A DNA stretch of 52,758 nt from Candidatus Binatia bacterium (GCA_963666315.2 CAXXHG010000031.1:1-52758); one strand, 5' to 3'; positions 14,732-48,001 are shown, counted from the stretch's first letter. Notes: a model not told the origin generated them from the letters alone. A program made the numbers and translations.

Positions 14732-15715
14732 TTACGGGAACGAGACTATGCTGGTCTCAAAGTCAAAGCGCACAGCCTTCAGTTTTCGTGAGGCGAGGAT
14801 GACATGGAATTCTTTGACGCGCCCATCCTCGCTGACGTCGCAACGGAGCAGGGCGCGAGGAGCCCCTTTGGGATGGGTCTGCGAAAACTCGAGCAGCATC
14901 GCCGGCAGTCCGTTGACGACACACGGCCGGACGCGCATGCCAGCTAATCTTCGCTGCGCGACCCATAAGAAAAACTGTGCCACCTGAGAGCGGCCTACGA
15001 GCGGCACTCGTAGCGCGCTGTACTCACCACGGGCATCGGTGACTACACGGACCGAGTCAGTCAGGAGGGCTTGAATGCCTTCGACGTCCTGGGCGACGAG
15101 GCAGCGCAGAAATTCTTCCAGCACTCGCTGCGTCTGCTCTTGCAACCCACGCGTAGGGATACATCGCTCACGGTCATAGGACTGCATCTTTTGTCGGGCT
15201 CGGTGGTGCAGTACCCGCACATTTGCTTCCGACGGTCCCAGCACCTCGGCGGTTTCACGCGCTGAATAGTCAAAGACATCTCTGAGGAGCAGCACTGCGC
15301 GAGGTCGTGGGCTCAACGCCTCTAAGGCAAGCAGGAAAGCAAACGAGACACTCTCGAGCAGCTCATAGCGCCCTTCGAGACTGCCCTGCATGCCGCTCAT
15401 AGCCTTGGCGTACGCTGCTGTTCCTTCGTTTCCCGTCTCGATTGGTGATGGAAGCCAGCGCCCTATATACGCTGATCGCTTGCGTCGGCGGAGCATGTCC
15501 AGACCGACATTCACCGCGATACGAACAAGCCACGGGCGCCACCCCTCGTCGCTGCCTGGAGGCGGATGTTGCAGCGCGCGGACAAACGTCTCTTGCACGA
15601 TGTCATCGGCGTCCGCGGCACTACTAGTCAGACGATAGCCCACCCCCCACAGCAAACGCTCGTAGGCCCGGAATACGGCGCCCAGCTTCGCCGTGCCATT
15701 GGGCAGTGTGTCCAT
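14732..15715 (-). CDS. ECF41/SigJ-family sigma factor (sigma-70 r2/r4 + C-terminal SnoaL-like domain)
   Basis: DADDIVQETF, YIGRWLPSP (variant of the WLPEP linker), LLRDVFDYS, C-terminal NG.PA domain. Confidence 0.88.
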   Translation of the reverse strand: MDTLPNGTAKLGAVFRAYERLLWGVGYRLTSSAADADDIVQETFVRALQHPPPGSDEGWRPWLVRIAVNVGLDMLRRRKRSAYIGRWLPSPIETGNEGTAAYAKAMSGMQGSLEGRYELLESVSFAFLLALEALSPRPRAVLLLRDVFDYSARETAEVLGPSEANVRVLHHRARQKMQSYDRERCIPTRGLQEQTQRVLEEFLRCLVAQDVEGIQALLTDSVRVVTDARGEYSALRVPLVGRSQVAQFFLWVAQRRLAGMRVRPCVVNGLPAMLLEFSQTHPKGAPRALLRCDVSEDGRVKEFHVILASRKLKAVRFDFETSIVSFP

Positions 15716-15947: not shown

Positions 15948-16307
15948 CTAGCTTTCCTCTCCACTCTTCAGAGGTTGGACCAAGTACGTACTAAGAACTT
16001 TCAACAATCGCGCATGCCTTTCTGGTGCGATTGTCCCAATTGAGCCGGCAATGTCTTGTTTGGGTAGAACGGCGAGGAATCCCAAGCGAAACAAAGAGGT
16101 CGAGGCTAATCCGCTGGAGGCAAAGTCAGCATCTGCTGAGGAGATGATTTCGTCAAAACTCTGCACGTCGTGCTGTAATTGAGTGCTCACACCACAGACG
16201 AGAACATCCCCATAGCCAGGCATTTCGCCAAGGACGATTGCTGGGCGGTTCTTCACTCTCCCATCGGCTTGGGGAATGGGCGTCAGGACGACGTCACCTT
16301 CTTTCAT
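15948..16307 (-). CDS. PemK/MazF family toxin
   Basis: GDVVL.P.PQADG..KNRPAIV, CGVST, SGL..TS..R motifs. Confidence 0.85.
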   Translation of the reverse strand: MKEGDVVLTPIPQADGRVKNRPAIVLGEMPGYGDVLVCGVSTQLQHDVQSFDEIISSADADFASSGLASTSLFRLGFLAVLPKQDIAGSIGTIAPERHARLLKVLSTYLVQPLKSGEES

Positions 16308-16400
16308 ACTCTGGATTAGACTCTTTGATAGCGTCTAGCGAATACTCTGGTTCATCTCCGCCATAGGCATTTTCTAATGCTTGTCTGGATAAGAGCAGCC
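16294..16400 (-). pseudogene. C-terminal remnant of the cognate antitoxin
   Basis: Reads LLLSRQALENAYGGDEPEYSLDAIKESNPEYERR* and overlaps the toxin start. The in-frame sequence upstream (to GTG 16467) does not look antitoxin-like and runs into the attC-like site. Confidence 0.6.
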
Positions 16401-16452
16401 GATCAGGATCACAAAAGATAATAAGCCAACTCTTCAAGAGACGAAGGGCAAT

Positions 16453-16540
16453 GTCTAACTGGGCCACTGCACCTGACCGCCGCCACGTTGCGAGTCGGAG
16501 AGAACAGAAACGTTATGTCTTGGCGACGGCAGGCGACTGA
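16453..16540 (+). mobile_element. Degenerate integron attC-like site
   Basis: GTCTAAC (RYYYAAC), 5-nt spacer, CACTGCAC-CTGACCGCCGCCA, pairing imperfectly with TGGCGACGGCAG-GCGACTG. No intact GTTRRRY R' box. Confidence 0.5.
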
Positions 16541-16560
16541 CAAAACACCGTGGAGTACTC

Positions 16561-16977
16561 TTATTCACTCCCACTCAACGCCTGACTGAGCGCCTGACGG
16601 TAAGGATGGGTGTCCATATAGGTTCGGAGGATCTTGAATTTCCCGTTTTCAAACGTCCAGAAGTTCAGATTGTTCATGACAATCGGTTTGCCATCTGTCG
16701 TCTTGCCTTCGAGGTGGAGGGGGGCAACGAGTTTGTTGCCGTCGATAACAATGTCCGTGGCAGCCGCCTTATAATCGACGAGGCTGGAGGTCAGCTTTTC
16801 ATAAAACGGGAGCAGGGCAGCTTTCCCTTGAATGCCCTCCTCGCCCGTCATAGGGTTAATAAGCTTTGCATCGTCTGCGAACAATTCGAGGATGCCGTCC
16901 ACATCACCATTGGTAACTCGTTCAAAATAAGTATGCGCTGCGGCTTCCATAGCCTGTTCAACTGGCCCTCTCGTCAT
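16561..16977 (-). CDS. SnoaL/NTF2-like family protein
   Basis: YFE...GDVDGILELFADDA, G...IQGKAAL, FENGK...YMDT; GGAGG RBS just before ATG 16977. Confidence 0.85.
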   Translation of the reverse strand: MTRGPVEQAMEAAAHTYFERVTNGDVDGILELFADDAKLINPMTGEEGIQGKAALLPFYEKLTSSLVDYKAAATDIVIDGNKLVAPLHLEGKTTDGKPIVMNNLNFWTFENGKFKILRTYMDTHPYRQALSQALSGSE

Positions 16978-16990
16978 AATTCCTCCCGGA

Positions 16991-17015
16991 AAGTTCAAGG
17001 TTCAAAGTTCAATGG
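16991..17015. repeat. Heptamer array, arm downstream of the four-helix-bundle gene
   Basis: AAGTTCA AGGTTCA AAGTTCA ATGG; inverted relative to 17436-17468. Confidence 0.85.
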
Positions 17016-17030
17016 AGTGGAAGAAGCGCT

Positions 17031-17420
17031 TTACTTGTACTCGCTCCCTTTCATTTCTGTAGTGCGTAAATATTTCATTAGGCCAGCGATCAATCGGCTG
17101 ATCTCCTGAGCTTTCTCACGGAGATCACGGAACTCGGTTTCACGGATATAGGCTTGATCAAAGGCAACATACAACTGAGCACGCACCTCACCGCAGGAGC
17201 CTTTCGCAAGAGATAAGAACTGGACGAACTCTTTATTCCCTTCACGCTCAAACCCCTCTGCTATGTTTGACAGAATGGGAACCGAAGCTCGACGGAGTTG
17301 ATCTTTCAAACCGAAGTCACGATTAAAATCCCCTGACGAGGAACCTGTATAAACGGCCTGTGCCAGTTCCCGGGCTTTCTTCCAGGCTTCAATGTCCTCA
17401 AATTTCTCGAATCGAGCCAT
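17031..17420 (-). CDS. Four-helix-bundle protein (23S rRNA intervening-sequence protein / Avd-like family)
   Basis: FEDIEAWKKAREL...Y, DFGLKDQLRRASV.ILSNIAEGFER, FVQFLSLAKGSCGEVRAQL. Confidence 0.93.
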   Translation of the reverse strand: MARFEKFEDIEAWKKARELAQAVYTGSSSGDFNRDFGLKDQLRRASVPILSNIAEGFEREGNKEFVQFLSLAKGSCGEVRAQLYVAFDQAYIRETEFRDLREKAQEISRLIAGLMKYLRTTEMKGSEYK

Positions 17421-17435
17421 TGTTATGAGGCCCTA

Positions 17436-17468
17436 CCGTTGAACCTTGAACCTTAAACATTGAACTTT
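17436..17468. repeat. Heptamer array, arm upstream of the four-helix-bundle gene, abutting the uvrA stop
   Basis: CCG TTGAACC TTGAACC TTAAACA TTGAACT TT; overlaps the uvrA stop codon (17467-17469). Confidence 0.85.
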
Positions 17469-20400
17469 ATCCCAGATACTCTTTCAAACATTGCGCCGTG
17501 TACGACTTCTCAGCCTTCTTGATGAGCTGCTCCGGGGTGCCGCTGGCGACTATATTTCCGCCGGCCGCGCCGCCTTCGGGCCCTAGGTCGACGATATAGT
17601 CGGCCTCTTTGATGATGTCGAGATTATGCTCGATTGTCACAACCGTATTGCCATTATCAATCAGGCGATGCAGGGTACGAATCAGTTTTTCAATATCAAC
17701 AAAGTGTAGCCCGGTGGTCGGCTCGTCTAACACATAGAGGGTTTTTCCGTGTGAGCGTTTGGCTAACTCGTAGGCCAGCTTAATGCGCTGGGCTTCGCCA
17801 CCCGACAGCGTATTGCTCGCCTGACCGAGCTTGATATAGCCCATGCCAATGTCATTCAGGAGCTGCAGCGGCCCGGCAATCTTGGGCACGCCAAAGAAAA
17901 ACGTTGCCGCCTCTTCGATCGTCATTTCGAGTACATCGGAGATACTCTTAGCGTTGTATGCAATCTCCAAGGTTTCTTCGTTATAGCGCCTCCCACCACA
18001 TACATCACAGGTGACATACACATCCGGCAGAAAACTCATCTCCATCTTGATACGACCCTGTCCAGCACAGGTTTCACACCGCCCGCCTATGACATTGAAC
18101 GAGAAGCGGCCCGGTTTATAGCCGCGTAGCCGGGCCTCGGGCAGCATGCAGAAGAGCTTGCGTACTTCGTCCCACAGGCCGACGTAGGAGGCTGGAACCG
18201 AACGCGGGGTTTTACCAATCGGGGACTGATCGACTTCCACAACACGCTCGATAGAGTCTGCATTCTCTAGGCTGTCATGCCTTCCCATGCGGCCCGCGTA
18301 CAGACCCAGTTTACGCCTCAGCGCGGTGACGAGGACGGCCTGCACCAACGAGCTCTTGCCCGATCCCGACACACCGGACACACACACCCAGGTGCCGAGA
18401 GGGATATCAACGTCGATATTCTTCAGATTATTTTCCCTCACCCCACGGAGACGCAGTGTAGGGCGATCTTTGAGCGATCGAAGCGGCCCGAGACGCGGAT
18501 GAGCAGAAGAGAGGAATCGTCCAGTGAGAGAATCCGCGTTCTGACGCAATTCATCCGGCGACCCAATTGTCACGACATGACCGCCATGCACCCCCGCACC
18601 CGGTCCGAGATCGATCACCACATCGGCGTTTTCAATCGTCTGCTCATCGTGTTCAACAACCAGCACCGTGTTGCCACGCTGCTGGAGATTCCGCAGGGTA
18701 TCAATCAGCCGGGCATTATCACGCGGATGCAGCCCTATCGTCGGCTCGTCCAGGATGTAACACACCCCGCATAGATTAGAGCCGAGCTGGGCTGCCAGAC
18801 GGATACGCTGCGCCTCTCCCCCCGACAAAGTATCGGCCCGACGGTCGAGTGTCAGATACGACAGGCCAACCTGATTGAGGAAAGTCAGCCGTGGCGCGAT
18901 CTCCTTTATGATCGGTTCACCAATAAGCACCTCCCGCTCCGATAGGGGCAGCTCCTGCATATGACTGAGACAATCATCATTCGACAAGGCCATGAGTGCG
19001 GGCAGCGACTGGCCGTGCACGCGCACGGCCCGCGCGCGCGAATTCAGACGGTCGCCGTTGCACACCGGGCACGCAGACTCGCCCAGGAATTGTGACAGCG
19101 AATAGGATGAAGCTAGCCCCTCACCGTCTTCAAGCGTTTCATTCAAAATATCGAAAACACCCCGGAGTCCGTTCCCATCCCCCGAGAAGACGAGTTCGCG
19201 CTGCTCCGTACTCAGTTCACCGAATGGCCGATCCGTTGGAACGCCGTATTTTTTTAACTCGCGTAGAAGTTTGTTCTTGTCCCGTTTGAGTTCTGAACGA
19301 GTGAGCGGCAAAAGCGCGTCTTGTTGGAGTGATTTTCTTTCATCCGGGACAACAAGCTCGGGATCAAACTCCCATAAAAAGCCCGCGCCCGTACATTCAG
19401 GACAGGCGCCCTGACGGCTATTAAACGAAAACATGCGCGGGTCGAGTTCCTCATACCCCAGCCCACACGAGACACAGAACAGCTTCTCACTATACGTGCG
19501 CTCGTCTTCACCCAGCAGATGTACAGCACCATTCCCAACTCGCAGGGCCGACTGGAGCAGAGCCTCGGTGTCGCGCCCAGTCCCATTCACCCGCGTCTCA
19601 CCAATAACAATATCAATGTCGTGCTCTTTATAGCGCTGCAAACTCATGCCCGGCTTGAGCGTCGTCCTCAGGCCGTCAATGCGCGCTTGCTGAAAGCCGA
19701 GCTTGCGCGCGCCGTCCAGGATGTCTTTATGAAACCCTTTACGCGCCCGTACCACTGGTGCAAGAAAGGTGGTGTCCTGACCATGAAAATCGGTTCGGAC
19801 ACGATCCAAGATTTGACTCCGGCTCTGGGCAGCCAAAGGCTCATCACACTTCGTACAATGCTGTACGCCAATCTTGGCATATAACAGCCGCAGATAGTGC
19901 GAGATTTCTGTGACTGTCGCAACGGTCGAGTTACGTCCGCCTCGGCTCGTGCGCTGCTCAATTGCCACGGTGGGTGGAATGCCGGTCAGCAGATCAACAT
20001 TGGGTCGCGCCAGCACTTTAATAAACTGGCGCGAATAGGCGGACAGACTATCGATGTAGCGTCGTTGCCCTTCGGCATAGACCAAATCAAAAACTAAAGT
20101 CGATTTCCCTGACCCGGATAATCCCGTCACCACCACCATTTGGTCGCGCGGGATATCAAGCGAGATATTCTGAAGGTTGTGTTCCTTGGCCCCAACAATG
20201 GCTATCGATTTCCCACTTCCTACTTCCGCAGCAATAGGCGGTAGCGGAGACTTCGCTTTTTGCTGCTTAGATCCTTCGACTCCGCTCAGGACAGGCTTTT
20301 GACTTTTGACTTTCGACCTCGCACCTTGAACTTTCGACCTTGGACCTAAAACGTGTTTGAGATACTGCCCGGTATAGGACGCTTTGACCTGCACAATCTG

Positions 20401-23166
20401 TTCCGGCGTCCCTTCCGCAATGACCCGTCCGCCGCCGTCTCCACCTTCAGGCCCAAGATCAATGAGGTGATCCGCATATTTAATCACCTCAAGATTATGT
20501 TCGATGATTAAGACAGAATGGCCACGCGTAATGAGCTGATCGAACGCATTCAGAAGTTTCTGAATATCCGCGAAATGCAGTCCGGTTGTCGGTTCATCAA
20601 AAATGAACAGCGTACCCTTGTCTTTTACCTGGGCAGTCTCCTGAGAGCGCCCTCTAGCAATATGCGTCGCCAGCTTTAGTCGCTGCGCCTCGCCGCCGGA
20701 CAGCGTAGTCAGCGATTGGCCCAGGCGCATATACTCCAGACCTACAGCCGCCAGCGGGGCAAGCCGGCGCTTGAGTTCTTTTTGCTCGCCAAAAAATTCT
20801 ATGGCTTCAGTCACCGTAAAATTGAGGATGTCGGTCAGGCCCTTGCGCTTATAGGTGACTTCCAATACTTCAGTCCGGAATCGTTTGCCGTGACATTCAG
20901 GACACGGGACATACACGTCCGAGAGAAACTGCATCTCCACTTTCTCAGCGCCTTCGCCTTTGCATGACTCGCAGCGCCCGCCTTCAACGTTGAACGAGAA
21001 TGTACTCGGGGTGTAGCCGCGCACACGGGCGAGTTCTGTTTGCGCCAGTAAGCGTCGCACCGTATCAAACGCCTTGGTATAGGTGAGTAGATTAGCCCGC
21101 GGGGTCGTCCCGATCGGAGACTGATTGACAAAAATAATGTCAGCAAGCTGATCCCCGCCCCGGATATCGCGACACGGCCCAGGTAAGCCAACCGGCTCGC
21201 CGCGCTGTTTTTTGAGTCCACGATACAGGACGTCGTCAACCAGCGTTGACTTGCCCGATCCGGATACTCCGGTCAGACACACCATGCAGCCGAGCGGAAT
21301 GGTGACATCAATGCCCTGCAGATTATGCGCGCTCGCCCCACGGATGGAGAGGCCGTATTTTTTCCGGACAGGGCGGCGTTTTTTCGGTAGCGGAATAGTC
21401 ATCCGACCAGACAGATATTGTCCGGTCAAAGACTTCTTGTCTTTGAGCAGCTTGGCGTATGGTCCCTCAAAAATAATCTCGCCGCCCTTTTCACCCGCCA
21501 ATGGTCCGAGGTCGATTATGTTGTCGGTCGCACGAATAATCTCAGGATCGTGCTCAACCACGACAACCGTATTGCCGTTGTCTCGTAGGTCTTGCAGGAT
21601 GCGGACCAGGCGTTGGCTGTCACGAGGATGCAGGCCAATAGAGGGCTCATCCAGAATATACAGCGTGTTCACCAGAGCCGAGCCTATCGCGGTTGTGAGA
21701 TCGACCCGTTCCAGTTCGCCACCGGACAGCGTTCGGGACTGACGGTCCAGGGTGAGGTATTCGACGCCAACCTCGACCAGGTAACGCAACCGTTTTCGAA
21801 TCTCGTCCAGGATGAGATGCGCGACTTGATCTTGGAAGGCGGTCAGGGTGAGATCCCCAAAAAAGCCGGCACATGCAGCTATGCTCAGCTGACTAATATC
21901 GGCGAGCCTTTTGCCTCCAACCCGATACAGGAGGGCCTCAGGTTTCAGCCGCGCGCCTTGACAGTCTTCGCACAGGAAATAGCCCCGATAGCGCGCCAGA
22001 AAGACACGCACGTGCATCTTATACGTTTTGGTTTCAAGCCATTTAAACCAGCCTCGTACGCCGTAGTAGTCGCCGTCACCTTCCATGATGACCAGCTGTT
22101 GTTCCGGACTGAGCTTGTGCCACGGCACGTCGGTCGGAATGTCCTGCTGTTCACAAAAAGAATACAGTTCGCGCCGCTCCCACTGGGCAGCCTTAATCCG
22201 CCAGGGTTTAATCGCGCCTTTTTCGAGCGTCAAGGCCGGGTCGGGCACAACCAGATCAGGATCAATATCGATGGTGCGGCCAAACCCACGGCAGGTATCA
22301 CACGCGCCCAGCGGGCTGTTAAACGAGAACATATTGGGCACAGGTTCTTTATAGGCAATGCCACACGCCGCACATTCAAGCTGATCCGAGAAGAGCAATT
22401 CGGCATTGTCCTCATCTGGAAAAAGTAGCGTGAGGCGCCCTTTCCCGTAGTGAAAGGCTTGTTCGAATGAATCATGGATGCGCTTTTTAGAGCGCGTCTT
22501 CAGGACCAAGCGATCAACCAGGATCGTACACGTTTCTTGCTGGCTTTCCGGACGCTCATCGAGTTCCTGGATATCAACCGGCTTGCCCGCTACAACAATA
22601 CGATGAAATCCAGACTGCAACAGACCACCACGCACCTCTTGCCACGGCAAACTGGCAGGCGTTGTGACAGCAAAGGTCACCAGAAAGCGGCTGCCGTCGG
22701 GTTTCTCTTCGACCAGTTTTTTATACACCGACTCAGCAGAATCCCGCTCGACCGGCTGGCCACACTCCTGGCAATACAAGGTGCCGATCTTGGCAAACAG
22801 GAGCTTGAGATGGTCATGCAGCTCGGTCATAGTCCCGACCGTTGAGCGCGAGGTACGCACCGGTCGGTTTTGGTCAATGGCAATAGCCGGCAGAATACCG
22901 TCAATGCGCTCAACCTGAGGCTTGTCCATGCGGTCCAGAAACTGCCGCGCGTAGGCCGAGAAGCTCTCGACATAGCGCCGTTGGCCTTCCGCATAGAGGA
23001 TATCGAAGGCCAGGCTGGACTTGCCGGAACCACTGACTCCCGTCACCACAGTCAGTTGGTTCAACGGGATCTGGACATCAATGTTTTTGAGATTGTTCTG
23101 GCTTGCACCAGTAACACGAATCGAGCCGCCACTCGTACCGTTGGTTTCCAATCCGGCCCTCCACAT
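17467..23166 (-). CDS. uvrA: Excinuclease ABC subunit A, double-length (two fused UvrA units)
   Basis: Four Walker A motifs ([36 protein letters not shown]), four LSGGE signatures, Zn-finger CxxC pairs, two AEGQRRY motifs. True start may be TTG at 23151 after GGAGG. Confidence 0.95.
20251..20345. repeat. In-frame heptamer array plus REP-like unit inside the UvrA linker
   Basis: ttttgac ttttgac tttcgac ctcgcac cttgaac tttcgac cttggac (20297-20345), next to ccttcgactccgctcaggacagg (20273-20295). Translates as [26 protein letters not shown]. Confidence 0.8.
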
Positions 23167-44809: not shown

Positions 44810-47800
44810 TCAAAACAATTCCAACTGCGATTCTTTCCTTTTCCCACGCAGCCTCAACTGACTCCGCCGGCGCTCGAAGAGTTGTTCTTCGATATCCGCT
44901 AGGTAGGGGGATGGCGACATGGGTCGTATCTTGCCGCGCCAGCGGCGCTTCTTGGCATGACACAGATAGAGCTTGGTCTTGGCTCTGGTAACTCCCGCAT
45001 AGAAAAGCCGCCGTTCTTCGGCAAGGGCAGTCTCGTTCGCCTTGCCCCAGGTCAGCGGGAGAATGCCGTCTTCACAACCCACAATAAAAACAACCGGGAA
45101 CTCCAAGCCCTTGGCGGCATGGAGCGTGAGAAGAGAAATCCTATCAGCACGCGGGTCCCAGGTGTCGATTTGAGTCTCCAACGCAAGAGCGGATAGAAAG
45201 CGATCCAAATCGTCCCCGTACGACTGAACAATTGGTTTGAGGAGTTCAAATGCCTCTTCAGCCTCCTCAATCTCCTTCGTTTTTTTGGACGCAGCTTCAA
45301 GCTGGCGGAGTAAGGCCACTTCACTCTGCTCATCACGTATCGAGTCAATCAATGTGGCAACACCAGGGTGATCTAGAAGATGGGTATGCGCTCGCTTTTG
45401 AAATGGCATGCCGGAACGTTGCAGTGCTTCGACGAGCGCACCGGCTTGCGCTTCAGTCCGATACAGCACGGCAATGTCAGCAAAGGACACGTCCTCAAAG
45501 GACACGTTCTGGCCTTCAGCGTCTCGCGACCGACCAGTATCAATAGAAAAAAAGCTGTGCCCACCGAGTAGGTATTCCAGAGACTGTACCACAAACTCCG
45601 CTTCAGCCTTCTCAGTCGGCGCTTCGTGTATGGTAATGAGGCTGGGGGCGTCTTCAAGCACAGGCCTGGATTTCTGCTCAGAACCTGACGGTGCAATGAC
45701 TTGAGACGAGAGTCTCAAGTCATTGCTATCAGACCGATAGTTCCGTGTGAGTCGCACGACTTGTGCGTGAGGAAAGTCTTCGCTGAACTGAGCGAAAAAC
45801 CGCACATCCGCCCCGCGAAAACGATATATAGCCTGATTGGGGTCGCCAATCGCACAGATATTGCTGTCTGGCGGAACGAGGAGCTTAATGAGCCGGACCT
45901 GTTGTTCGTCCACGTCCTGATATTCATCGATACCCACCCATAGATATTGCTGTCGATAGTGTGTGAGTAAGCCTGTGTCGGATTCCAAGGCATAGATCGT
46001 CCGTCCTATGAGATCGTCAAAATCAACCAGATTACGCGCTTCCAATGCCTGTTGGTATGTCTGGTACGCTTTGGTCTGCTTCGCCTCTGCGGGTGTTGTT
46101 CCGGTCCGTTTTGCCGCAGAGATAGCCGAGAGTAAGCTGCGGGTTTGTCGTGCGGAAACGCCAAGTGTATCTTATAAAAGTTGCTGCCGCTCTGCCTCAG
46201 CCGCAATACGGAAGCCACGTTGCAGACCTGCCGCGTTCCAGTGCGCTTGCAAAATAGCCATGCCGAGCGCGTGAAAGGTAAAGAGGGCAAGCTTGCCCCA
46301 GACATCCGGCAGGAGGCGTTGTAAACGTTTGCGCATTTCATCGGCCGCGCGGCGAGTGAACGTAATGGCCAGCCATTGCTCAGGCTGGACAGCATGATTA
46401 AGAATGAGGTGGGCAATCCTATGCGTGAGCGTGCGCGTCTTGCCCGAACCTGGTCCGGCAACAATGAGGAGCGGACCTGAGACGATCTCAGCCGCCTTGC
46501 GCTGATCTGCATCAAGTCCGACTAAGACACCGGACGCCTGCTGTTCCAGCGTTTTTTTCAAAATGGGCAGAACGGGCAGGGAAGCAGAAGCCAACTTTGC
46601 GGGCTTGGCAGGCTTCGCAGGCCTCGACTGTAGAGAATCTTCTTTTCGCCCAGCGAGCTTCTTCTTTTGATTTTCTTTTCTAGGCAAAACATCTGGTTTC
46701 ACCAATGGCTTGGTGTTATGTGGGAAAAATGACGGTCCACTGGTCTGTTGCCTCAACTCTTCGTCCCGGAATAGCTTGATCCTGCCGTAGACACCATCGT
46801 AGCCAGCTTCGCGAATGACCTCCTGCTTCCGTAAGCGGGCAATCGCTTCGGCCACTATCGAGTCACCAGTTTTCTGAATGTCTTCTAACGGAATATCGTT
46901 GATAAGCTGCAGCTCGGGTCCAAGCTGGCCGAGCAAGCCTTCGTAGTAGTGAGCAACTTTCTTACTCTGGGGGCCAACATGCAGGATCTCGGATAAAATC
47001 TCGGGCAGTGGCACGAGGCTCTGGACCGCGCCTGCCGTTTCAGGCCGGCTCTCGCCGCTCCGGTCGGCCAGATCATCTATGCGGTGCATGACGCCAATGG
47101 TCAACGGCTTGCCGCACTCCGGGCAGCGACCGCCAAGCTGCTTGGTCTCGTTGGGTAGTAAACAGACATGACAATTGCGGTGACCGTCGAGATGGTATTT
47201 GCCCTCTTCAGGAAAGAACTCTAGCGTTCCTTCATAGCCACGGCCTGTTTCCAATGCTGTGCGGATTGCAAAATAGTCAAGCTCTGTGTCAAAGACACAC
47301 GCTTCGCGACCCAACTTTTGCGGTGAATGGGCGTCGGAGTTTGATACCAGCCGAAAGCGGTCCAAAGACGATACACGCCAGTTCATCTCTGGGTCAGACG
47401 AGAGGCCGGTCTCAACCGCAAAGATGTGCGAAGCGAGGTCAGCGTAGCATTCGTCGATGGCGTCAAAGCCCGACTTCGATCCGAGCGCGGCAAACCACGG
47501 CGTCCAAATATGGGCCGGAACAAGATACGAGCCCGGACCTGATTCCAGCGTTATTTCTAATAAGTGCCGCGAATCCAACCCCAAGATGGGCCGGCCGTCG
47601 GACTTCAGATTGCCGATCTTAGACAGACTCTGAATAATGCGCGCGGCAGACGGAAAGTCAGGCGCGTAGAGCAGGTGATGGATCTTACGCGTCTTTTCCC
47701 CTTTTTTATAAATAGTCGAAATCTCGACAGACAGCATGAAACGCGTCGTCCCCTGACAAGCCGGCGGCAGCATGGCCGAGACCTCTTTTTCGAGGTCGGG

Positions 47801-48001
47801 TTTGAGGCGGAATAGTCCTGGCTCAGCAGGGACAAGTTGCTCTTTCAACTCGGCAATCCAAACCGGGTGCGTAAAATCGCCAGTCCCGACCACGGCAATG
47901 CCCTTCTTGCGTGCCCAATAGGCCAGGTGTTTCAGATCGCAATCTTTACTTGTGGCGCGAGAGTATTTGGAATGGATGTGTAGATCGGCGTAAAACGCCA
48001 T
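44810..48001 (-). pseudogene. PHP/endonuclease Q-like domain fused to a UvrD/REP helicase, with one in-frame TAA at 46172-46174
   Basis: ADLHIHSKYSRATS, GTGDFTHP, PAHIWTP, NSDAHS, GKYHLDGHR, CPECG; then AGPGSGKT, DEYQD, GDPNQAIY.FRGA, NYRS, TLHAAKGLEF, EERRLFY. The frame continues unbroken through the stop (QQLL*DTLGVS). Confidence 0.88.

Follow-up and report, generated by a model that had tools for sequence, protein, structure and literature searches.

Between uvrA and snoaL on the minus strand of a 52,758-nt stretch of DNA from Candidatus Binatia bacterium (GCA_963666315.2 CAXXHG010000031.1:1-52758; the whole stretch is called the window below), a gene for a 129-residue four-helix-bundle protein is enclosed by two arrays of 7-nt repeats that are complementary to each other. 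We conclude that this element is probably a promoter-less hairpin cassette of the type known from the intervening sequences (IVSs) of 23S rRNA, here seated in an mRNA junction, and that its stem would make the insert tolerable, most likely as a substrate of RNase III. Comparison of related loci shows that the cassette is duplicated and inserted as one unit, which lodges between a stop codon and the next start codon or ribosome-binding site and is oriented like its neighbours. To judge from the aligned loci, the arms stay complementary while their sequence drifts, and their copy number shifts in 7-nt steps.

According to the model that we propose, the cassette would be read as part of the uvrA-snoaL transcript, in which the arms would form a roughly 26-bp stem, loop the gene out and bring the uvrA stop codon beside the snoaL ribosome-binding site. 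As with the 23S elements, RNase III would act on this stem, and the insert would be tolerated or cut out with its neighbours still expressed.

Layout of the element and its protein

Read in the coding direction, the stop codon TAA (17469-17467) of uvrA (17467..23166) adjoins the first heptamer of the 5' arm (17436..17466), which consists of four heptamers of the NGTTCAA type, AGTTCAA (17466-17460), TGTTTAA (17459-17453), GGTTCAA (17452-17446) and GGTTCAA (17445-17439), followed by CGG (17438-17436). A 15-nt spacer (17421..17435), in which TAGGG is only a weakly Shine-Dalgarno-like motif and nothing resembles a promoter, leads to the four-helix-bundle gene (17031..17420; ATG at 17420, stop TAA at 17033-17031), which occupies the loop of the hairpin. 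Its stop codon is separated by 15 bases from the 3' arm (16990..17015), in which CCA (17015-17013) is followed by three heptamers of the TTGAACN type that are complementary to the 5' arm, TTGAACT (17012-17006), TTGAACC (17005-16999) and TTGAACT (16998-16992), and by TT (16991-16990). The ribosome-binding site of snoaL, GGGAGGA (16981..16987), lies 2 nt past the 3' arm, and the downstream gene itself (16561..16977, ATG at 16977-16975) is of the SnoaL_2 type (Pfam SnoaL_2, E 5e-17). An open reading frame (ORF) listing placed the snoaL start at a TTG at 16998, inside the 3' arm, which is unlikely; the gene more probably starts at the ATG that follows GGGAGGA. Counted between its outermost heptamers, the cassette spans 16990-17466, or about 480 nt. 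The original prediction had laid out this same order, from the uvrA stop through heptamers, gene and complementary heptamers to GGGAGGA and the snoaL ATG, and the sequence reads as it claimed.

The same holds for the stem, for which roughly 25 bp with G-U pairs and two mismatches had been claimed. Paired by hand, the arms give 22 Watson-Crick pairs, 2 G-U pairs and 2 mismatches over 26 positions, and a repeat search returned inverted arms of 26 nt with 85% complementarity (16990-17015 and 17436-17461). When the minus strand was folded, both the minimum-free-energy and the centroid structure of 16965-17480 paired the arms, and the arm duplex, including 7 nt extra per side, had an energy of -34.6 kcal/mol. 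The z-score of the whole 516-nt fold was only -1.21, which is not unusual, because the coding loop dominates the energy. A search for the double heptamer with at most two mismatches gave four matches in the 52.7-kb window, all of them within the two arms, against 0.2 expected and with none of 100 shuffles reaching four, and the inverted-repeat score of the flanks was 16 compared with a maximum of 10.5 in 100 flank shuffles. Tandem Repeats Finder reported period-7 arrays at 16990-17012 and 17439-17465 with 3.3 and 3.9 copies, respectively. Both arrays thus hold at least three head-to-tail 7-nt units outside coding sequence, as do short tandemly repeated repetitive (STRR) sequences.

A promoter scan found no promoter-like site between uvrA and snoaL, and terminator-like matches are of weak consensus. 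Because no such site intervenes and a terminator-like hairpin with a T-run, detected by consensus scan only, follows just past snoaL (16552..16571, minus strand), uvrA, the cassette and snoaL probably form a single transcription unit that ends at this hairpin. The four-helix-bundle gene is single-copy in the window (tblastn), and a repeat search found no long direct repeat pair around it. Neither a reverse transcriptase nor a transposase is present among the 40 window ORFs, as the original prediction had stated for the surroundings of the gene; the sole recombinase found among them is an XerC/D-like gene 11 kb from the cassette. With Rfam, no family, rRNA included, matched 16800-17600 at E-values of up to 1.

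The cassette protein belongs to PF05635 (E 5e-35, 120.3 bits with a cut-off of 33.8, residues 8-112 of 129) and to TIGR02436, the 23S rRNA intervening-sequence protein family (E 5e-33, 113.6 bits with a cut-off of 24), which is very large, with at least 6137 clusters at an E of 0.001 or better. An AlphaFold2 model (pLDDT 90.6) shows four long helices in a four-helix bundle. Its best Foldseek matches were 2GSC (XCC0516; TM 0.81/0.89, root-mean-square deviation 1.7) and 2RLD (TM 0.77/0.87). The accessory protein Avd is a small basic protein that acts with structured RNA transcribed from its own locus, the diversity-generating retroelement (DGR). Relatedness to Avd, which had been claimed in the original prediction, is borne out by the fold: bAvd 4DWL matched with TM 0.70/0.81, and chains of the DGR ribonucleoprotein (8UB7) were also retrieved, at TM of about 0.7-0.8 and, for both, with weak E-values. 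This likeness is undetectable by sequence with phmmer against the PDB. The closest solved relatives, 2GSC and 2RLD, differ from Avd in being non-DGR proteins, and the window itself differs from a DGR in that its 40 ORFs include no RVT domain and no template/variable repeat pair lies near the gene. According to PMC4990558, solved family members such as 2GSC are homopentamers that form a toroid. The cassette protein has among its homologues both such a toroid of five subunits and Avd, which binds RNA in DGRs. The ratio of nonsynonymous to synonymous substitution rates (dN/dS) was 0.05-0.32 across six pairs, with 0.32 for the window and its relative L001 (related loci carry L numbers), and a Shine-Dalgarno-like tetramer precedes 43 of 81 starts, compared with 13 of 81 in a control window. 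By these substitution ratios, the protein is under purifying selection.

Heptamer arms and insertion sites across the family

A protein-based scan of genome contigs gave 534 confirmed loci, and we examined the best 80, with 52-95% protein identity, mostly from Acidobacteriota (Pyrinomonadaceae), Verrucomicrobiota, Planctomycetota, Binatota and Chloroflexota, among others. For each locus, the 120 nt upstream of the ORF were compared with the 120 nt downstream for an ungapped inverted repeat, using 100 shuffles as reference. Inverted repeats beyond all 100 shuffles were found in 73 of the 80 loci, with arms of 15-54 nt (median 30). As a control, pseudo-elements of the same size were displaced by 2.5 or 4 kb inside the same loci; a score of at least 12 was reached by 71/78 real elements and by 1/248 shifted ones. 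A period of exactly 7 was found in 114 of 116 detected arrays (median 4.2 units), with a detector so strict that it missed many imperfect arrays, the window's own among them. One locus, L060, passes the arm test with a GC-rich, non-periodic repeat.

These numbers bear on one alternative, that the repeats are ordinary slippage-prone intergenic simple sequence of the STRR kind, which flanks the gene by chance and has no functional link to it. Cassette-bearing genomes do hold many other intergenic heptamer arrays, and such heptamers are known from cyanobacteria (STRR; heptamers upstream of recF and recO in Nostoc), Beggiatoaceae (TAACTGA) and Bacteroidetes. The published heptamers resemble those described here in being of period 7, intergenic, often in touch with start or stop codons, variable in copy number and found in the same phyla. 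However, they are mainly direct repeats with no associated gene named and with a binding protein only speculated upon, whereas the window-type arrays are complementary pairs that enclose one specific gene family. The rarity of inverted arms at control positions, the complementarity of the arms in most loci (see below), the recurrence of the association in distant homologues and rRNA, and the copying of the arms as part of a duplicated unit make a chance association highly improbable.

Five of the seven loci that failed the arm test (L042, L051, L059, L077 and L076, the first four of which are one common syntenic locus) carry arrays of the same orientation on both sides of the gene and a third, complementary array 100-200 nt further upstream; L072 is cut by a contig end, and L064 is unaccounted for. 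We had considered these five loci, together with the plasmid loci L085 and L088, as 'direct repeat' counter-examples to pairing, and rejected that notion since all of them have the third, complementary upstream array. The resulting X - X' - gene - X' layout recurs in at least four unrelated lineages and permits two alternative stems, one that excludes the gene and one that encloses it. Three loci, L042, L046 and L059, come from metagenome-assembled genome (MAG) contigs labelled Klebsiella or Bifidobacterium, yet they are syntenic with and near-identical to Verrucomicrobiota loci, and the labels look wrong.

The original prediction had asked for complementary 7-periodic flanks in homologues, and these extend to distant family members as well. 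A tblastn search of a plasmid collection gave 29 records, from which we fetched ten, picked to span organisms, at 27-49% identity; all ten have significant inverted arms. Their arm units are unrelated: GGTTYAA in Riemerella, GGGGAAA in Nostoc and Geminocystis, AGTCAGG in Nostoc and Aulosira, GGAGATA in Picosynechococcus, GGGTGTA in Calothrix, an 8-mer in Gemmatirosa and CTAAAAG in Pseudanabaena; GGGAAAA is also among the heptamers of these copies. The Gemmatirosa and Pseudanabaena copies have the three-array layout. Inverted heptamer arrays also occur without a gene, with loops of 14-110 nt (L054 3816-3901, L039 5409-5545, L015 9513-9753, L028 11348-11419, L037 7850-7999); some have the core of the neighbouring cassette (GTCCAA) and others are unrelated to it (GTAAGGG, AATCGTG, CAGTGAG). 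A further 48 period-7 arrays are found in the 808 kb of loci.

The orientation of the cassettes follows that of their surroundings. When neighbours were called as longest open frames, 61/77 upstream and 67/80 downstream ones ran in the direction of the cassette, counts that are approximate because this heuristic miscalled the window's own snoaL as minus-strand; the eight plasmid loci with annotation have no annotated neighbour on the opposite strand. As a rule, no more than about 10 nt separate the first heptamer from the stop codon upstream, with overlap of the two being frequent, and the distance from the last heptamer to the following start codon is mostly 0-20 nt.

The hexamer cores of the heptamers vary by locus. 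GTTCAA and GTCCAA are the commonest, and GTCTCA/GTCCCA, GTTTAA, GTTCCA, GTCTGA, GTTCGA, GTTCAG, GTTCTG and GTTTCA also occur. To examine covariation, we picked independently the commonest GT-initial upstream hexamer and the commonest AC-final downstream hexamer of each locus and permuted the labels 10,000 times. The two hexamers were reverse complements in 59 of 72 loci, compared with a permutation mean of 18.9 and a maximum of 31, and most discordant pairs differ by one transition. The expected covariation of the arms is therefore present. It can also be followed at single genomic sites: in a 19-locus syntenic group of Acidobacteriota, in which the cassette lies between genes for a membrane-fusion protein and a resistance-nodulation-division (RND) pump, both arms are GTTCAA in 11 loci, GTCCAA in 6 and GTTCAG in 2, and three more syntenic groups also mix cores. 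Since such groups carry differing cores on both arms, the arms must change together at one genomic site. The 19 members are L003, L004, L006, L011, L017, L018, L021-L024, L026, L027, L034, L036, L044, L048, L049, L066 and L074; at this junction, the cassette persists across family-level divergence with its arm core changing.

Core type broadly tracks protein clades, with switches between near-identical proteins, in a quick tree in which many forks are poorly resolved and which supports coarse conclusions only. This pattern bears on the possibility that the heptamer arrays are binding sites of the cassette's own protein, with one 7-nt unit per subunit of a pentameric ring, a role in autoregulation, ribonucleoprotein formation or mobility, and the inversion being secondary. 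The strict 7-nt period with a median of about four units per array would suit such a ring, as would the homopentameric state reported for solved family members in PMC4990558, the match of our model to the Avd chains of the DGR ribonucleoprotein structures (8UB7) and the tracking of clades by core type. Yet near-identical proteins lie between different cores (L019 with GTTCAA vs L032 with GTTTAA; L025 vs L065), and the heptamers are entirely different across a family with common conserved residues. In addition, the two arms show different, complementary sequences on one RNA strand, and many arrays of other heptamers have no gene (the 48 mentioned above). We regard it as quite improbable that protein binding is what the arrays primarily serve.

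The boundaries of the cassette can be seen where copies or their sites are compared. A single MAG contains two copies, L038 and L039, with 89% identity between the outermost heptamers and no relatedness beyond them. The closest relative found of the window element, L001 from a Binatia MAG, is collinear and 93.6% identical over uvrA, cassette and snoaL, and the arms differ by exact 7-nt indels, with one additional unit in the 5' arm of the window and one in the 3' arm of L001. The Nostoc plasmids L082 and L083 have three adjacent genes, A, B and C, in common at 89-99.7% identity. In L083, a cassette lies between the stop codon of A and the ATG of B, where L082 reads TAG-GTT-ATG; L082 in turn carries a different cassette between the stop codon of B and the ATG of C, where L083 has an overlapping TAATG. 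Megablast of this region gave five records with the full stretch and six with a cassette-sized gap, of which L082 alone was inspected by eye. In Picosynechococcus PCC 7003, a cassette lies between cas10 and cmr3, and plasmid pAQ6 of PCC 7002 (93% identical) reads TAA-12 nt-ATG instead. At the filled cas10-cmr3 site (L086 1440-1491 vs L091 700-757), the 5' repeat enters the last cas10 codons, alters the C-terminus and supplies a new stop codon. Empty sites, which the original prediction had sought in relatives at the uvrA-snoaL junction, thus exist for other members of the family; the uvrA-snoaL junction is also filled in L001, its one close relative.

Synechocystis PCC 7338 (L092 738-1318) has, at the cas10-cmr3 junction, a gene for a Uma2-family endonuclease that lacks arms. 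Cassettes lie inside CRISPR-cas operons at two loci, L086 1457-1884 (cas10/cmr3, Picosynechococcus PCC 7003) and L088 1289-1968 (cas6/cas4, Pseudanabaena), and the '23S rRNA IVP' family is listed as CRISPR-linked in PMC10910872. This association may be hitch-hiking.

RNA stem, DNA ends or protein-binding sites

IVSs of 23S rRNA lie at helix 25 or 45, and ORF-bearing ones occur at helix 45 in Leptospira, Coxiella, Brucella and others. Kinship with these elements, already proposed in the original prediction, is seen directly at L087, an Azospirillum plasmid locus in which the cassette is inside a bacterial large-subunit (LSU) rRNA gene (Rfam). Its quasi-heptamer arms are GAGGACG/GATGACA, and several of their mismatches are G-U on the rRNA strand. 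Rfam searches of 13 further cassette loci gave nothing at gathering scores, LSU rRNA being detected at L087 only. As described in PMC4990558, the 23S IVS of Coxiella is a 428-nt element in helix 45 with an S23p ORF in the loop of a 28-bp terminal stem, which RNase III cleaves in vitro at a mid-stem position mapped by rapid amplification of cDNA ends (RACE); three tandem GACAGAT heptamers, whose copy number varies between strains, lie upstream of the ORF. GACAGAT is a rotation of the L087 unit GATGACA. The location of L087 in LSU rRNA together with the stem and heptamers of Coxiella therefore indicates that the classical rRNA element and the window element have one design: a PF05635 protein, a terminal stem of 25-30 bp with the ORF in its loop, tandem heptamers of variable copy number in the arms, an orientation co-directional with the host transcript and a size of about 430-480 nt. 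The window element has both the ORF-enclosing terminal stem and, at 17439-17466, four upstream heptamers. It differs from the 23S elements in lying at the uvrA/snoaL junction of a protein-coding transcript and not within a 23S rRNA gene; in addition, RNase III cleavage is experimental for rRNA, whereas the window copy is known from sequence alone. A stem-loop of heptamer repeats inside a structured RNA is also described for the Nostoc trnL intron.

The case for RNA follows from three points: the orientation tied to host transcription, the fit to stop-start junctions and the homology with RNase III-cleaved rRNA elements. Several observations weigh against it. Evidence for RNA pairing or cleavage comes from rRNA copies only, and none is direct for any non-rRNA copy. 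The ORF of the Coxiella element is reported in PMC4990558 to be decaying and its protein probably not to be made, unlike the window gene with its signature of purifying selection. In 74 ungapped arm pairs, we counted 1936 Watson-Crick cells and, among the mismatches, 56 G:T and 63 A:C; an excess of G-U over A-C would be expected if the sense RNA were under selection, so the arms may owe their complementarity to a constraint on DNA. Mismatches are frequent at position seven of the unit (21 T:T cells). The energy of the arm duplex, with 7 nt added, was better in sense at 39 loci and in antisense at 33 (p=0.16). A sense-strand energy advantage obtained with 120-nt flanks (50 vs 31, p=0.002) was discarded, as it stems from outside the arms and vanishes on restriction to the arms. 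We regard the wobble-asymmetry and arm-energy tests as neutral, not as favouring RNA over DNA. Further, the 80 loci are not independent, as 53 of them fall into 11 groups with both flanking genes in common, which leaves about 39 contexts. The filled-versus-empty evidence consists of two cyanobacterial plasmid comparisons with three junctions, none from uvrA-snoaL. Finally, cassettes keep one junction across family-level divergence and therefore move rarely.

Part of this evidence would also suit arms that act as DNA. In such a scenario, the arms are terminal inverted repeats of a non-autonomous mobile element, either like a miniature transposable element with inverted repeats (MITE) that carries a passenger gene or a recombination cassette, the ends being recognised or paired as DNA, for example as single-stranded DNA hairpins or through gene conversion between arrays, and pairing in RNA is incidental. 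Insertion polymorphism with clean empty sites, copies bounded exactly by their arms, and arms that have neither a G:U-over-A:C excess nor a sense-strand energy advantage all fit this scenario, as do the gene-less hairpins of the same heptamers nearby (L054 3816-3901, L039 5409-5545), which could be landing pads or remnants. On the other hand, the window contains no adjacent transposase, reverse transcriptase or integrase, and comparison of three filled junctions with the corresponding empty ones revealed no convincing target-site duplication (one of them has an overlap of 2-3 nt, TG/ATG, which is too short). A transposase dedicated to these elements would require ends of constant sequence, whereas the arms vary from one cassette lineage to another. 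Moreover, orientation is strongly tied to the host transcript, and the same design is found in 23S rRNA, whose stem is known from experiment to be cleaved as RNA. We consider DNA-acting ends unlikely to be the explanation, and neither they nor protein binding are mutually exclusive with an RNA stem.

MITEs and repetitive extragenic palindromic elements with their mosaic assemblies (REP/BIME) are likewise short, intergenic, hairpin-forming and present in many copies per genome, with inverted ends and no transposase of their own; the cassettes differ from them in having a conserved protein gene, a transcription-tied orientation, no target-site duplication seen, and ends that are periodic arrays free to change in sequence. 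With respect to insertion sequences and MITEs, the only ORF of the cassette is the four-helix-bundle gene, and end sequences differ between lineages. Integron cassettes are also promoter-less single-gene units in line with host transcription that include a folded imperfect palindrome. However, an integron cassette has one attC at one end and needs an adjacent IntI/attI, while the cassettes described here have two arms, no integron integrase and scattered operon junctions as sites.

The RNase III-type hairpin cassette that we favour is thus in part familiar. ORF-bearing 23S IVSs, their terminal stems, excision by RNase III, the Coxiella heptamers, intergenic heptamer repeats and the relationship to Avd are all in print. 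The original prediction had called the element the window's best candidate for an undescribed system; this goes too far, as 23S rRNA IVSs with an ORF, a stem and heptamers are in print, and it is the occurrence at mRNA junctions and the heptamer arms throughout the family that we found in no paper. Our literature search, with subscription journals and database family notes outside its range, found no paper in which non-rRNA family members are flanked by complementary heptamer arrays or inserted at operon junctions. The window element is therefore an ordinary member of a so far undescribed non-rRNA variant of the ORF-bearing IVS.

To our knowledge, neither an origin nor a function has been agreed on for 23S rRNA IVSs with their 'S23p' ORFs, which date back to the early 1990s in the literature, and bacterial heptamer repeats have been known for as long without a partner protein. 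Our analysis joins three loose ends: these IVSs with their ORFs, the heptamer repeats, and TIGR02436, a family that is strongly conserved yet still unexplained. The gene and two complementary heptamer arrays make up one insertable unit with covarying arms, found at operon junctions as well as in rRNA. A broader proposition, which is possible and which we put forward only tentatively, is that armed four-helix-bundle genes are widespread mobile 'junction introns' that settle at stop-start junctions of operons in at least eight phyla, and of which the 23S IVS is merely the best-known site, that they are tolerated by means of their folding arms, and that the Avd-like pentamer is the partner of the heptamers. 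If so, either RNase III would cleave the folded transcript, or ribosomes that terminate there would cross the base of the stem and resume at the next gene; bacterial heptamer repeats would have their missing partner in the pentameric Avd-like protein, which would bind the stem with its 7-nt period and contribute to its spread or upkeep; and gene-less hairpins of the same heptamers, like arrays of the STRR type, would be footprints or targets of that protein. Natural filled and empty pairs are available in cyanobacteria that are culturable and non-pathogenic, namely Picosynechococcus PCC 7003 vs 7002 and the Nostoc plasmids. In annotation, cassettes split operons and inflate 'gene neighbourhood' associations, such as the CRISPR link listed in PMC10910872 and seen here at cas10/cmr3; they may also cause assembly breaks.

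Neighbouring genes in the window

The upstream gene of the element, uvrA (17467..23166, minus strand), appears in the ORF list as a single ORF of 1899 aa, in which NCBIfam uvrA equivalogs match twice and Pfam UvrA_DNA-bind and UvrA_inter also match. It represents a tandem duplication with two complete UvrA modules within one ORF. On the other side, snoaL and the terminator-like hairpin are closely followed by a gene for a MazF/PemK-like toxin (15948-16307, minus strand); this toxin gene is overlapped and preceded by a 57-aa ORF (16294-16467, minus strand), which is probably its antitoxin. PADLOC gave no match for the cassette protein, SnoaL or the MazF-like ORF. About 850 bp downstream of the stand-alone snoaL, beyond the MazF-like pair, an extracytoplasmic function (ECF)-type sigma factor (14732-15715, minus strand) has a weak C-terminal SnoaL_2-like match. 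At a distance from the cassette, a TAA near 46175 interrupts a gene for a UvrD-like helicase (44813-48001, minus strand) and leaves two ORFs, with the N-terminal helicase domain ending a 609-aa ORF and the remainder in a 411-aa ORF, which points to either a pseudogene or a sequencing error.

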